A stretch of 64,000 nt of DNA, from assembly GCF_058153355.1 (NCBI RefSeq), contig NZ_CM177019.1; one strand, written 5' to 3'. Positions 4,511-55,843 of this stretch are shown here, in pieces. The notes under the pieces were generated by a model. That model had not been told where the DNA came from. It searched no databases and was given only the letters and a program-made list of their open reading frames with translations. Position numbers and translations under genes: made by a program. Every line of letters begins with the position of its first letter. Position 1 is the first letter of the stretch.

Positions 4511-5293
4511 CTACCCACGAACGTTAAACACCGCATACGTGTTATTAAGCAACACTTCGGCAATCTCATCCGCGGGTTCCGGGCGTAACTCGCACAGCAC
4601 GGCAAACACACGGGCGGCCTGTTCAGGGCGATTAGGCTGCCCCTGAAAACCATTGAGCGGCATATCTGGTGCGTCGGTCTCCAGCAACAACGATGCCAGC
4701 GGCAGCTTTGCGATGACATCGCGGGTTTTACTGGCGCGTGGATAGGTGATAGTACCGCCTACGCCAATTTTGTAGCCCAGCTGCACAAACCGTTCGGCCT
4801 GTTGCAGGCTGCCAGAAAAACCATGAACCACACCAGTGCGTGGCAAATTTTGGCGTTTAAGATGCATCGCCAGTTTGTCGTGCGTGCGCCGTGAATGAAG
4901 GATCACCGGCAGATCGTAGCGTTTCGCCAGTTTCAGTTGTTCATCAAGCAACCACTGCTGCCTCTCAAATTGCGGATCGTCACCAAAGAGATCCAGGCCG
5001 ATCTCCCCCACCGCCACCACCTTCGTCGGACGTCTTCCCAACGCCTGCTGTAACTGATCCAGCGATGCATCGTTATGTTTTTCCAACATCCCCGGATGCA
5101 ACCCTAAAGCGGCATACAGCGGTTGATAATTTTCCGCTAACGCCTGCACGCGGGCAAAATTTGCCGCCTCGGTGGCCGGAACAATGATCTTGCCTACGCC
5201 CGCTTGTGCCGCGCGTTGCAGGCTGGCCTCTTCATCGCCACTAAACGGCGGGAAATCAAAATGGCAGTGGGTGTCGATAAAACGGCAAATCAA
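4511..5293 (-). CDS. yjjV: TatD-family metal-dependent hydrolase/DNase
   Basis: N-terminal FIDTHCHFDF motif and TatD-like length. Overlaps the yjjU stop by 4 nt. Confidence 0.9.
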   Translation of the reverse strand: MICRFIDTHCHFDFPPFSGDEEASLQRAAQAGVGKIIVPATEAANFARVQALAENYQPLYAALGLHPGMLEKHNDASLDQLQQALGRRPTKVVAVGEIGLDLFGDDPQFERQQWLLDEQLKLAKRYDLPVILHSRRTHDKLAMHLKRQNLPRTGVVHGFSGSLQQAERFVQLGYKIGVGGTITYPRASKTRDVIAKLPLASLLLETDAPDMPLNGFQGQPNRPEQAARVFAVLCELRPEPADEIAEVLLNNTYAVFNVRG

Positions 5294-39828: not shown

Positions 39829-40409
39829 GCGTTAGTTTCTCCACAGACACAAAACGCCACGACGCCCGGAGCTGCACACTCGCGGGCGTCACTCTTTTCT
39901 GGAGCGCAAAAGATTTTGTAGACCAGTGCTGCATGCTCCTGGAGCTTCGAAATTGACAGATACAACTCATCATTAATTACTGTCTGCTCGTGTGGCTCCA
40001 CTACCCCATCTTCGATTGCCGAACGAATCTGCTTTGAGTAACTCCCGATCTGTTCGATGACTTCCAGCAGACGCTGGTTTATATCGGCGTTCTCTACTTC
40101 CTCAATTTCAGGAAGCGATACAAACACCCCACCAGCAGACTGTGCGACAGCATCCGCAATGTAGTGAGTGCCAGCCGCGCGCTGTAAAATCATTGCCCAT
40201 CCCAGCGGGAAAATCTGATCGCCATCTGCACGAAGGCGGTTGAATAAAGCGTTCTCTGTTACATCCAGCCACTCAGCAGCTTCAGCGTAACCTCCCGGCA
40301 ACGCCGCGATAGTTTTTCTGACAGCTTTCACGTACCACTCAGGCTGTTTTTCTACTTTCCAGTGATGCTTACCCACGGCTATCTCCTTAAAACTGTGGTT
40401 ACTTTCCAT
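39825..40409 (-). CDS. CII-like / YmfL-family phage regulatory protein
   Basis: 194 aa. Second gene of the rightward early operon, after cro. Resembles e14 YmfL (from memory). Confidence 0.55.
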
Positions 40410-40647
40410 CAGATAAGTCTTTAATCTTTTGAAAAATATCTGGACGTAATTTTTCTTTTGATACGCCAGTGGTCATTTCAATGAATATCGAGAGCTTTGC
40501 AGGGGGACGCTTTTCTCTGTTCAACCAGTTCCAGACATGTTGTTGCTTTACTAAACGACCACTGCTGGCTGTGAGCTTCCGAGCCAATTCTGATTGACCA
40601 CCAGCCAGAGCGATTGCCTCTGATAAGGCTAATTGCTCAGGTGTCAT
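40399..40647 (-). CDS. Cro-like HTH repressor
   Basis: 82 aa. HTH ...GGQSELARKLTASSGRLVKQQHVWNW... Divergent from cI across the operator region. Confidence 0.75.
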   Translation of the reverse strand: MTPEQLALSEAIALAGGQSELARKLTASSGRLVKQQHVWNWLNREKRPPAKLSIFIEMTTGVSKEKLRPDIFQKIKDLSDGK

Positions 40648-40659
40648 AGCTTTCTCCTA

Positions 40660-40770
40660 TCTGTAAGTAGTAAAGTTGTTGATAACTTCGATTATACAAC
40701 TACAACAACTTTTATTACAACTTTTAGATGTTGGAAAGCTAAAACATAAAGTTGTAACCTCAATAAAAAC
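40660..40770. promoter_or_regulatory. OR-like operator/promoter region (PR toward cro, PRM toward cI)
   Basis: Repeated AAGTTGT/ACAACTT half-sites. Minus-strand TTGTAA-N18-TATAAT (TATAAT = revcomp of 40691..40696). Shares the blocks ACATAAAGTTGT and ATTACAACTT(T/A)(T/A)AGATGTTG with 41655..41710. Confidence 0.7.
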
Positions 40771-40784
40771 GAGGGGGATATGTT

Positions 40785-41471
40785 GTGAAAACATTGGCAG
40801 AAAGACTAAAAAGCGAAAGAGAAAAAGCAGGAATGAGTCAGGCGCAACTAGCTGAAAAAATTGGACTTTCACAACAATCCGTAGCGAAAATCGAGAATGG
40901 AGAAACTCAACAGCCTCGGAAAATTAAAGAGATTGCTAAAGTGTTAGGGGTTTCTCAAAAGTGGTTGCAATTGGGCATTGAGGATAACGCGTCTTTCCCA
41001 AACCTTGTTGTAAAGGAGGCTGAAAGTACAACATTAGATCCTGACATTTTTGCAAACATTCCTGTCCTAGATGTCGAATTATCAGCGGGTAATGGATGTT
41101 TGGCTGAAATAGTTGAATCAACTGTAGACTGGTTCCCGCTAAGAAGGATTGATTTAAGGAAAGCTGGTGTATGTGTCTCCAATGCAAAGATCGTAAAAAT
41201 TTGGGGTAATAGTTTACTACCTGTACTTAACAATGGAGATTTTGTTGCTGTTGATGTTTCCCAAACAGTTCCTATTCGTGATGGGGATCTTTATGCTATA
41301 CGTGATGGCGTATTACTTAGAGTTAAAATATTGATCAATTTACCTGACGGTGGTCTGATTCTAAGAAGTTTCAATAAAGATGAGTATCCAGATGAAATAC
41401 TCACCTTCGAAGATAGGCGTTCCAGAATTCACGTTATAGGTAGAGTATTCTGGTCATCGCGCACTTGGTAA
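40785..41471 (+). CDS. CI-type repressor (XRE HTH plus S24 LexA-like peptidase domain)
   Basis: GTG start with GAGGGGG upstream. HTH MSQAQLAEKIGLSQQSVAKIENG. C-terminal GNSLLPVL and LRVKIL (Ser/Lys dyad context). Confidence 0.85.
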   Translation: MKTLAERLKSEREKAGMSQAQLAEKIGLSQQSVAKIENGETQQPRKIKEIAKVLGVSQKWLQLGIEDNASFPNLVVKEAESTTLDPDIFANIPVLDVELSAGNGCLAEIVESTVDWFPLRRIDLRKAGVCVSNAKIVKIWGNSLLPVLNNGDFVAVDVSQTVPIRDGDLYAIRDGVLLRVKILINLPDGGLILRSFNKDEYPDEILTFEDRRSRIHVIGRVFWSSRTW

Positions 41472-41654
41472 TGCATCAAAAACATTCCTTCAGAAATTTA
41501 GTTACCATTATTACCCGCCTTTTCAATCTTCCTCCCGTGATTTGAGAGTTTCCAATCACGGAAGGAAAGTGTCCATTGTGTAATTAAAAGCGCATCGTCC
41601 ATACAACCTCCTTTTTTGATAACCCTAGCCCCCATTTAACATCCGTCAAAACCA

Positions 41655-41712
41655 CATAAAGTTGTTGACAACAACCAAAACAACAACTAGATTACAACTT
41701 AAAGATGTTGCA
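41655..41712 (+). promoter_or_regulatory. OL/PL-like operator-promoter
   Basis: TTGACA (41665..41670) - 17 nt - TAGATT (41688..41693). Perfect 15-bp palindrome GTTGTTGACAACAAC (41661..41675) over the -35. Operator blocks shared with OR. Confidence 0.7.
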
Positions 41713-41803
41713 GTAACGAACAGGCAGGACGCCCACGAAGTAGCCGCCGGTGGCGTATGAATGACCGGATGATTCGTTAAATACTATGTGTAAGAGAGCG
41801 CAA

Positions 41804-42006
41804 ATGAACCGTTATTTCACATGCTCGTTTTGTGGCGCAAACGAGCTGCAGGCAAAAAAATCATCGCCAAAGGCGGAAAAGATGAAGTTGCTATCTGCTC
41901 TGAGTGCGTAGTCTTGTGTGTTGGGGCATTAATCAATATCAGCACAACTATTCAGTTCACACCAAATGAGAATGCGCCTTTAGATGCGCGGAAATCTGGA
42001 GGTTAA
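41804..42006 (+). CDS. ClpX-type zinc-ribbon protein split over two frames at an A7 run (67 aa if -1 shifted)
   Basis: Frame 0 from ATG 41804 reads MNRYFTCSFCGANELQAKK then stops after 35 aa. The -1 frame (track ORF 41821..42006) continues IIAKGGKDEVAICSECVVLC. Together they give CSFCG...ICSECV, as in the ClpX N-terminal domain. Confidence 0.55.
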
Positions 42007-42095
42007 AGAACAAAATGAAAGTCCAGATTTTAAACAATAACTGTGAAGTCGTTTGGGCGTAAAACATGACCGCGCGTAGACCAAGGGAGGAAAAA

Positions 42096-42272
42096 GTGGG
42101 AATAGTTAGAAATCAAGCAGATATATTGAAAATCAGCTCTGAATTGCTTGGAGTTTTGAAAAGTGAGCTCACCGCACATGGCATCGAGCCCACTGACGAA
42201 AATTTAAGTTGGGTTTTGTCGATTATTCAACAATCACTCAAGCCCAGCCTCAGCAAACTTTTTATCGAGTAG
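42096..42272 (+). CDS. small hypothetical protein (58 aa)
   Basis: GTG 42096 with GGGAGG 5 nt upstream. In frame with track ORF 42066..42272. Confidence 0.45.
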   Translation: MGIVRNQADILKISSELLGVLKSELTAHGIEPTDENLSWVLSIIQQSLKPSLSKLFIE

Positions 42273-42424
42273 TGCTTCGAACTTATCGTAAAGCTTGCTT
42301 ATGTCGTCTATCGGGTTTTCTGACGTACTGTAATTTTTATCTGATGTCATGGCAGCAGTCTGATATGCAGTGTGAGTCTTAACCGATAGTTGGAATAAAT
42401 AAAGAATTTTTTCTTCTTTGGTCA
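42234..42424 (-). CDS. small acidic hypothetical protein (63 aa), antisense to the early-left operon
   Basis: ATG 42424 with GAAGGAAA 7 nt upstream. MTKEEKILYLFQLSVKTHTAYQ... Its 3' end overlaps the 42096..42272 ORF by 39 nt. Confidence 0.5.
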
Positions 42425-43291: not shown

Positions 43292-44116
43292 ATGTCTCAG
43301 AACTTAGACGCAACCGCAATTAATCAAATCCATGCCCTTATTTCTGCTCAGGGTGTTAATGAAATTATTAGTAAGATTGGTGCCGATGCTGTGGCATTGC
43401 CTGAGAATTTCCGCATTCATGATCTGGAAAAATTTAATTTAAATCGCTTCCGTTTCCGTGGTGCGCTTTCCACTGCCAGCATCGATGACTTTACCCGTTA
43501 TTCTAAAGATCTTGCAGATGAAGGCACCCGCTGCTTTATCGATGCCGATAATATGCGTGCCGTCAGTGTGCTTAACCTGGGTACTATTGATGAACCAGGT
43601 CACGCAGATAACACCGCCACTCTCAAACTGAAAAAGACAGCACCGTTCTCTGCTCTGTTGTCTGTTAATGGCGAGCGTAACTCCCAAAAGTCACTGGCAG
43701 AATGGATTGAAGACTGGGCCGACTACCTTGTGGGCTTTGATGCTAATGGTGACGCCATTCAGGCAACCAAAGCGGCTGCGGCGATCCGTAAAATCACAAT
43801 TGAAGCGAACCAGACCGCTGATTTTGAAGACAATGACTTCAGCGGCAAACGCTCCCTGATGGAGTCTGTCGAAGCGAAGACCAAAGACATTATGCCAGTG
43901 GCATTTGAATTTAAATGCGTTCCGTTTGAAGGCCTGAAAGAACGTCCGTTTAAATTACGCCTCAGCATTATCACTGGCGATCGTCCTGTACTGGTTCTGC
44001 GCATTATTCAGCTGGAAGCGGTGCAGGAAGAAATGGCTAACGAATTTCGTGATCTGCTTGTTGAGAAATTTAAAGACAGCAAAGTAGAAACCTTTATTGG
44101 TACTTTCACCGCCTGA
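43292..44116 (+). CDS. DUF2303 / YfdQ-like protein
   Basis: 274 aa. Gene order P-Q-R-S as in the CPS-53 yfdPQRS cluster (from memory). Confidence 0.65.
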
Positions 44117-55054: not shown

Positions 55055-55843
55055 ATGGCCTATCGTTCCGCACCGCTCTATGAAGATGTTATCTGGCGAA
55101 CGCATCTCCAGCCGCAGGATCCTGGACTTGCAGAAGCAGTACGGTCGACGATCGCAGAAAATCGTGAACATTTGCTGGAGTTTATCCGCCTGGATGAACC
55201 CGCCCCATTTAGTGCCCTGACGCTGGCGCAATGGTCATCACCGAATGCGTTAAGTTCTCTGTTAGCTGTTTATTCCGATCATATCTACCGCAATCAACCA
55301 ACGATGATCCGCGAGAATAAGCCGCTGATCTCCCTGTGGGCGCAATGGTACATCGGCCTGATGGTGCCGCCATTAATGCTGGCCCTGTTAACGCAGGAAA
55401 AAGCATTAGATGTGTCGCCGGAACATTTCCACGTTGAGTTTCACGAAACCGGACGCGCCGCCTGTTTCTGGGTCGATGTGTATGAAGATAAAAACGCAAC
55501 ACCACATTCACCGCAGCAGCGAATGGAAACGTTAATTAGCAAGGCGCTTGTTCCGGTTGTGCAAGCATTAGAAGCGACTGGAGAAATTAACGGTAAACTT
55601 ATCTGGAGTAATACCGGTTATTTGATCAACTGGTATCTGACTGAGATGAAACAGTTGCTCGGCGAGGCGACAGTTGAATCGCTGCGCCATGCCCTCTTTT
55701 TTGAGAAAACGCTCACTACCGGTGAAGATAATCCACTCTGGCGTACCGTGGTGCTGCGCGACGGCCTGCTGGTGCGCCGCACTTGCTGCCAGCGTTATCG
55801 CTTGCCGGATGTGCAGCAATGTGGTGACTGTACGCTGAAATAG
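55055..55843 (+). CDS. fhuF: ferric-siderophore reductase (2Fe-2S)
   Basis: 262 aa. C-terminal CCQRYRLPDVQQCGDC cluster motif. Confidence 0.9.
   Translation: MAYRSAPLYEDVIWRTHLQPQDPGLAEAVRSTIAENREHLLEFIRLDEPAPFSALTLAQWSSPNALSSLLAVYSDHIYRNQPTMIRENKPLISLWAQWYIGLMVPPLMLALLTQEKALDVSPEHFHVEFHETGRAACFWVDVYEDKNATPHSPQQRMETLISKALVPVVQALEATGEINGKLIWSNTGYLINWYLTEMKQLLGEATVESLRHALFFEKTLTTGEDNPLWRTVVLRDGLLVRRTCCQRYRLPDVQQCGDCTLK

Follow-up and report, generated by a model that had tools for sequence, protein, structure and literature searches.

Programmed -1 frameshifting, as known from dnaX and from IS elements, takes place at an A-rich heptamer in X_XXY_YYZ register (A_AAA_AAG or A_AAA_AAA) that is combined with stimulators, and the dnaX-type heptamer A_AAA_AAG is highly shift-prone. 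The use of A-rich heptamers by IS elements has been documented, and without a stimulator frameshift motifs in E. coli reach only 2-10x the no-motif background of about 0.07% (PMC4066793). At the level of transcription, E. coli RNA polymerase adds an extra base at an A7 tract in 0.39% of transcripts, and the rescue of a reporter is undetectable below eight A's (PMC6260861). Baranov et al. (2005, Genome Biol 6:R25; PMC1088944) describe genes that are disrupted at A/T runs and have single-ORF homologues. Such genes are mostly taken for pseudogenes, and slippage may partly rescue them; the cases collected are runs of nine A or T with substantial slippage. SspB, RssB, trigger factor and lambda O all dock on the N-terminal zinc-binding domain (ZBD) of ClpX (PF06689; 1OVX, 2DS5-2DS8), a CxxC...CxxC ribbon with CSFCG and ICxECV motifs. 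The degradation of lambda O requires this domain, and docking is through a hydrophobic patch including F16, the lambda O/adaptor patch (PMC7804408).

Here, we show that a prophage gene encoding a ClpX-type zinc ribbon is split between two frames at a run of seven A's, at 41804-42006 of the window (the whole 64,000-nucleotide stretch of contig NZ_CM177019.1, assembly GCF_058153355.1, that was analysed). Like the dnaX and IS sites, the locus has an A-rich X_XXY_YYZ heptamer in register; unlike them, it lacks a conserved two-ORF layout and a detectable downstream stem-loop or pseudoknot, its motif A_AAA_AAA is weaker in E. coli than A_AAA_AAG, and the shifted product is the ancestral protein. It shares with the cases of Baranov et al. 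a split at a mononucleotide run, intact homologues, and the prospect that RNA-polymerase slippage could restore the protein, but the run here has seven bases, for which slippage would concern about 0.4% of transcripts. Compared with the ClpX ZBD, the phage protein carries the same ribbon and motifs, with 36-40% identity over the structural alignment and a predicted fold that superposes at 1.6 A. It differs in being a stand-alone protein of 67 aa without an AAA+ module, in a 3-residue insertion between the zinc knuckles (KGGKDE against G-PS in ClpX) and in an Ala at the position of ClpX Tyr34, while ClpX Phe16 is kept as F9.

A zinc-ribbon gene in two frames at the head of a prophage early operon

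The gene neighbourhood is a lambdoid-type immunity region, and the features to which we refer throughout are as follows.

40399-40647, minus strand: YdaS-like cro gene
40785-41471, plus strand: XRE/S24-type repressor gene, 228 aa
41665-41693, plus strand: PL-like sigma-70 promoter, TTGACA-17-TAGATT (10 of 12 in the promoter scan)
41712-41781, plus strand: structured leader RNA of the PL transcript, about 65 nt (covariation across 39 distinct copies)
41790-41796, plus strand: Shine-Dalgarno-like AAGAGAG, 7 nt ahead of the ATG at 41804 (by reading of the sequence)
41804-41911, plus strand: frame-0 ORF of 35 aa, ATG at 41804-41806 and stop at 41909-41911
41854-41860, plus strand: A7 tract, GCAGGC-A7-TCATCG, lacking one base of the A8 that is in frame in intact homologues
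41860-42006, plus strand: -1 frame segment, residues 20-67 of the intact protein (IIAKGG...CSECVVLC...SGG) plus stop

Operator-like repeats overlap the promoter at 41665-41693, and their families D1, D2, D3 and D6 are common to the divergent promoter region at 40660-40760. The split gene had been called the first PL gene in the first-pass annotation, which agrees with its position as the first ORF after this promoter, the promoter itself lying just downstream of the repressor gene. About 60 nt past the repressor stop lies an inverted repeat (41529-41567; 17 nt, 88% complementary, 5-nt loop) without a T-run, which may serve in processing, in protein binding or as an atypical terminator. The nearest relative is found in E. 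coli UPEC_U013 (99.6% identity over 461 nt), where the element is a dusA-integrated prophage of about 40 kb that is largely intact, with an HK97-type head and a contractile tail. In many related prophages, we noticed an annotated pseudogene (PGAP 'hypothetical protein, frameshifted') just upstream of yfdP, downstream of the zinc-finger gene and in the same operon (at about 2263-2582 in L004-L010 and at 4557-4876 in L002), indicating that other early-left genes also carry frameshifts.

Every statement that the first-pass annotation had made about the letters of the split at 41804-42006 was borne out on re-reading. From the ATG at 41804, frame 0 encodes MNRYFTCSFCGANELQAKK and then SSPKAEKMKLLSALSA up to the stop, 16 codons on; residues 1-19 of the 35-aa ORF are the true N-terminus with the first CxxC, after which the ribosome would read residues 20-35 out of frame. 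The -1 frame is open from ahead of the tract, reads ...KKIIAKGGKDEVAICSECVVLCVGALI... and stops at 42004-42006, and KKIIAKGGKDEVAICSECVVLCVGALINISTTIQFTPNENAPLDARKSGG is the reading of the zinc-finger gene in this frame as far as that stop. Codon 17 is GCA (41852-41854), so that the run is read A|AAA|AAA, exactly in the X_XXY_YYZ register that had been claimed for it. A -1 shift, or one A added in the mRNA, would yield a 67-aa product. The -1 segment of the window is identical to that of intact single-ORF proteins in public data, and the start assigned by PGAP to the intact 67-aa homologue is the same ATG.

The proposal that only the fusion gives a complete ribbon of the ClpX type holds. Against Pfam PF06689 (zf-C4_ClpX, cutoff 27), the 67-aa fusion scores 41.4 bits, whereas the 35-aa and 61-aa pieces, each with one CxxC, fail at 16.2 and 21.7 bits, respectively. 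The four cysteines of the fused product (C7, C10, C32 and C35; CxxC ... CxxC) are invariant in all eight aligned homologues. A phmmer search of the PDB sequences returned the E. coli ClpX ZBD (2ds5, E = 2.5e-4; 1ovx, E = 3.8e-4) with the alignment CSFCG.......K.IA......ICxECV.LC. The AlphaFold (AF2) model of the 67-aa protein has a moderate mean pLDDT of 65, with 72-83 over residues 1-40 and less than 50 over the last 16 residues. When this model was compared with the PDB by Foldseek, the top six matches were all ClpX, namely five ZBD chains and one full-length ClpX model; the ZBD matches, led by 2ds6, 2ds5 and 2ds8, have target TM scores of 0.77-0.82 and an rmsd of 1.4-1.7 A. Pfam score, phmmer and superposition therefore agree on the ClpX-type identity that had been read from the motifs.

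The ClpX unfoldase itself was ruled out as an identity, as the protein ends at residue 67 and has no AAA+ ATPase module. The NCBIfam ClpX equivalogs cover positions 6-48 only and stay far below threshold (25.8 against a cutoff of 359), which indicates a stand-alone ZBD-like protein rather than ClpX. The gene is the same as that of the NCBI 'ClpX C4-type zinc finger protein' WP_033545897.1: the A8 allele, carried by K-15KW01 and many other strains, encodes this same 67-aa protein, and the window copy is one A shorter. On A7 copies, PGAP gives either no annotation or a 61-aa remnant only. PHROG 5259 matches the 67-aa protein over its full length (E = 2e-31) and is a family without an assigned function. 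A PADLOC search of the 67-aa protein gave no defence-system match, and a literature search for 'ClpX C4-type zinc finger' and phage retrieved a context-unrelated mention only and no paper on such proteins. Searching contigs for relatives with narrow patterns, we found only two distant Clostridia loci with 28-31% identity, which do not bear on the tract.

Tract length and reading frame across homologues

Tract length was inferred from match length, and it was confirmed by sequence at all 11 loci that were fetched (A7, A8 or A9). The zinc-finger gene is present in 99 records among 5426 complete E. coli genomes. Among the 89 rows read, about 60 have 204 nt (A8) and are annotated as a CDS, 'ClpX C4-type zinc finger protein'; 23 (26%) have 203 nt (A7), five have 205 nt (A9; strains CX04, CX05, CX07, CX15 and CX21), and one is a divergent plasmid copy. 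In IMG/VR, 44 of 49 copies are A8 and 5 (10%) are A7. In a collection of 15 billion proteins drawn from ENA, JGI and Logan assemblies among other sources, at least 1000 contigs encode the exact 67-aa fusion in a single ordinary ORF with A8, under the names ClpX C4-type zinc finger or ClpX-type ZB domain protein, and 17 contigs have the 61-aa remnant ORF of A7 alleles. The in-frame A8 is the norm for this gene. The first-pass annotation had held that homologues uniformly in frame, with this copy as the only A7, would point to a simple mutation or sequencing error; in-frame A8 homologues were found overwhelmingly, but the window copy is not the sole A7, and A9 occurs as well.

Two decayed or rearranged forms of the gene were noticed along the way. 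On a 37.7-kb plasmid of strain CX04 (NZ_CP081716.1, 1447-1652), a second gene copy that is 87% identical encodes a protein (P0008) with an internally frame-scrambled stretch, CPLLVAKTSRRQKIHVKGG, which destroys the first zinc knuckle and marks it as another decayed copy. In three 78-aa proteins (P0003-P0005, of which P0004 is on 38 contigs), the last 7 codons of the zinc-finger gene are replaced by another peptide, an alternative-frame read of the yfdQ region (cf. the window ORF at 43458-43631), implying that some prophages have lost about 1.5 kb by deletion.

Six haplotype backgrounds carry A7, and for four of them there is an otherwise identical A8 sibling (UPEC_U013 vs K-15KW01; L011 vs L032/34/39/41; L004; the L005 group vs L050). 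The flanks of the window are found with A7 (in the window and in UPEC_U013, the two being distinguished by a pair of adjacent SNPs), with A8 (K-15KW01) and with A9 (CX21). Such length polymorphism between otherwise identical sequences is what a phase-variable tract would show, although some of these records may be assembly errors. Indeed, the A7 of the window itself could be a homopolymer under-call in sequencing or assembly, the strain really carrying the in-frame A8. Consistent with this reading, A7 is commoner in the complete genomes, which are mostly long-read (23/89), than in the isolate-derived contigs of IMG/VR (5/49) or in the protein collection (17 contigs against at least 1000). Moreover, several A7 records are singletons on haplotypes with A8 siblings, and the haplotype of the window, which has a private synonymous SNP at 41922, is without a second representative. 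However, one A7 haplotype group is consistently inherited in more than 20 assemblies from various laboratories and hosts. It comprises 4.85-Mb-sized chromosomes from dog, cat and human (among them the Ec-050 series and a strain named ST167), an ST131 strain and others, and the older isolate drafts L058-L061 also carry the A7 of this group. Together with the presence of A7 in the public protein collection, this inheritance shows that real A7 alleles exist. We regard an error at the window as the main alternative, unlikely but well short of negligible. The recurrence of A7 on several haplotypes, along with A9, further indicates that the tract is a mutational hot spot and not the site of a single accident.

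Three more distant subfamilies of the gene were recovered. All are in frame, and two are without an A8 run:

Salmonella type: GCA AAA AAA ATT, A8, in frame
L063 type: GCA AAA AAG CTC, in frame
L075 type: GCG ATA/ATG AAG ATC, no run, in frame

Over the first 45 codons, the subfamilies differ by 0.42-0.95 synonymous and 0.14-0.23 non-synonymous changes per site, and dN/dS is 0.10-0.25 in the three computable comparisons. Such low ratios show that the protein is read in one frame and is under purifying selection. The split, out-of-frame arrangement is conserved in no lineage among the compared subfamilies. As a separate observation, codons 17-19 of L063-L067 and L074 (GCA AAA AAG) form an A_AAA_AAG heptamer in X_XXY_YYZ register inside an intact gene, where a -1 shift would yield a 23-aa truncated peptide.

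These comparisons weigh on two of the options listed in the first-pass annotation, a programmed -1 frameshift and transcriptional slippage, under which the A7 would be a functional design that sets a ratio of 35-aa to 67-aa product. The A_AAA_AAA heptamer at 41854-41860 is in the correct register and of the A-rich kind used by IS elements (PMC4066793), and either a -1 shift or the insertion of one A restores the exact wild-type protein. Yet the out-of-frame layout is not conserved, as most homologues and all of the diverged ones are in frame. A downstream stimulator was rejected, since the 70 nt after the tract (41861-41930) fold no better than shuffled sequence (MFE -16.7 against a shuffled mean of -16.6 kcal/mol, z = -0.03), and reading the 10-14 nt upstream of the tract revealed no GGAGG-like, Shine-Dalgarno-like stimulator. 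Unassisted rates at an A7 are below 1% (PMC4066793, PMC6260861), and the A9 alleles would need the opposite shift. Programmed transcriptional slippage typically goes with runs of at least 9 and with conserved overlapping ORFs, as opposed to the run of 7 and the non-conserved arrangement seen here. Programmed recoding, whether translational or transcriptional, is thus contradicted by the comparative data and barely credible at this locus. The annotation had also listed a fresh pseudogene, simple mutation or sequencing error, and it is this option that the A8 majority and the in-frame subfamilies support: relative to intact, selected single-ORF homologues, the window copy differs by a single-base indel, as does a frameshift pseudogene or null allele.

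We therefore favor, with a probability of roughly 60%, a real loss of one base from a mutable A8 tract, which would have left a null allele, with a leak of less than 1%, in a gene that is silent in lysogens. Under this reading, the locus would be a conventional 67-codon prophage gene of the early PL operon, encoding a stand-alone protein of the ClpX-type C4 zinc-binding domain, whose GCA-AAA-AAA-ATC stretch, an A8 homopolymer, would have lost one A in the window. Tracts of eight A's are expected to gain and lose bases readily, and because the gene is under PL and repressed in lysogens, frameshifted alleles would escape purging for as long as the host carries the prophage. From the A7 allele, the cell would make mainly the 35-aa truncated peptide, and full-length protein would amount to at most a fraction of a percent, arising from A-insertion by RNA polymerase or from unassisted -1 slippage. 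That the contraction is a real mutation in the source strain is our inference, as is a leak below 1%, for which the published rates set the expectation. Any low level of full-length product from A7 might nevertheless be enough for function.

Some observations sit less easily with a neutral accident. A7 is not rare, at 26% of the complete-genome copies read and on several haplotypes, which neutrality need not predict. In addition, the A8 is kept in two subfamilies despite near-saturated synonymous divergence; this retention might be a sign that mutability of the tract is selected, but codon usage by itself would give it with a chance of about 0.1. Such selection is the substance of a further reading, in which the A8 is a contingency (phase-variable) switch that turns by slipped-strand mispairing between ON (A8) and OFF (A7, A9) in lysogens, its variability being selected, possibly because the product is costly or affects induction. 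In its favor, A7, A8 and A9 occur on the same flanks of near-identical sequences, contractions were repeated and independent, no other type of null mutation was seen among the single-frame copies examined, and the A8 is kept in both the E. coli and the Salmonella subfamilies. Nevertheless, an A8 is short compared with a classical phase-variable tract, the run is entirely absent from two of the four subfamilies, and the indel events, set against the SNPs, are as numerous as expected if a silent gene contains a neutral A8 hot spot. A selected switch is accordingly improbable in our estimation, and the simple contraction remains our preferred account of the window.

As a recoding candidate, the locus is minor, being a null or leaky allele of an already annotated gene; what the split gene shows is that an in-register A_AAA_AAA run can pass for a frameshift signal.

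A structured leader RNA ahead of the zinc-finger gene

The segment at 41712-41781, after the promoter and ahead of the zinc-finger gene, shows 83-98% conservation across 53 records of very diverse phages. Among them are ST64B, SfII, SfIV, SfV, mEp237, mEp460, SPN3UB, ZF40, phiNP and YeP1-3, phages of Klebsiella and Aeromonas, and Providencia phage vB_PreS_PR1, in its terminal repeat; in IMG/VR, the element occurs in at least 120 contigs. Most of these records leave it unannotated, and the calls that overlap it in a few are all hypothetical proteins. Where the annotation was read, in four phage records, the element lies just downstream of a cI-like repressor gene. We also noticed its core in large (109-119 kb) Providencia phages (PSTCR5 at 55457-55518 and vB_PreS_PR1 at 5191-5252, the latter carrying it at two places in the record, inside an annotated repeat_region), which indicates that the element is not confined to temperate lambdoid phages. 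The alignment of the leader RNA contains three paired regions.

Columns 4-9 with 62-67: P1 (outer) helix, AACGAA/UUCGUU, AGCGAA/UUCGCU, CCACC/GGUGG, GUCAUC/GAUGAC
Columns 12-14 with 32-34: hairpin closed by GGC/GCC, nearly invariant and so uninformative
Columns 36-40 with 53-57: P2 helix, CCGGU/ACCGG, CUGGG/UCCAG, CUACC/GGUAG, CCGAC/GUCGG, CCAGC/GCUGG and others

Across 39 distinct copies, 94.5% of the cells are paired, compared with 17-45% when the partners are slid, and compensatory changes on both sides were found in 10 of the 14 pairs; the covariation score was reached by none of 500 shuffles. A single-sequence MFE fold of the leader is misleading here (z = 0.39), as it missed the helix supported by covariation. 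The covariance model (R1) scores 94 bits at 41712-41781, its single copy in the window, so that no second copy analogous to putR was found there. Scans against Rfam 15 gave no match in 41400-42300 (E <= 1) or in 41695-41800 (E <= 10), and a literature search did not find the words of the leader sequence. Homology to the put element of HK022 was considered and is not supported, as the best score of model R1 in the HK022 immunity/early region (L219) is 8.7 bits, which is no match; the two may still be analogous in function.

The zinc-finger gene lies downstream at only 8 of 114 unbiased loci, which shows that the leader RNA is independent of that gene; it is the context of the zinc-finger gene and no part of the frameshift. 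In the commonest context other than the zinc-finger gene (L103, L108, L121, L162, L215 and similar loci), we observed a hairpin, AAGCGCCCUACAGGACGCUU, and then GCUCUUUAACAAUCUGG, the hairpin following within about 8 nt 3' of the leader RNA. The sequence that follows the leader RNA, GCUCUUUAACAA or GCUCUUUAACAAUCUGG, is what we take to be a perfect boxA-type sequence (rrn/lambdoid consensus). In rrn leaders, a hairpin and then boxA occur in the same order. No boxA was found in the PL region of the window. The placement of hairpin and boxA suggests that the leader RNA acts on early transcripts through elongation control or antitermination, which we put forward as a lead, not a finding, from sequence. 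Unannotated and absent from Rfam, this RNA holds more interest as a lead than does the split ORF.

Possible function of the intact protein

The intact protein could plausibly act as a free ZBD and thereby as a ClpX decoy, judging from its likeness to the ClpX domain. A free ZBD would compete or pair with the N-domain of ClpX, either for adaptors (SspB, RssB) or for substrates that depend on the ZBD, an O-like replication protein being one example. [quoted passage not shown] Combining this with the mutable tract, one might picture the A8 as a selected hypermutable switch of a free ClpX ZBD decoy, the OFF alleles, slightly leaky through slippage of RNA polymerase or ribosome, tuning the interference with the recognition of adaptors and substrates by ClpXP at induction; we regard this combination as highly improbable.

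In one family of enterobacterial temperate phages, the first gene under PL encodes a stand-alone ClpX-ZBD protein. Purifying selection on the ZBD-like N-terminal region of these proteins is clear, but they are without an assigned function. A free ZBD would be a natural candidate for an inhibitor or decoy of adaptor and substrate docking on ClpXP.
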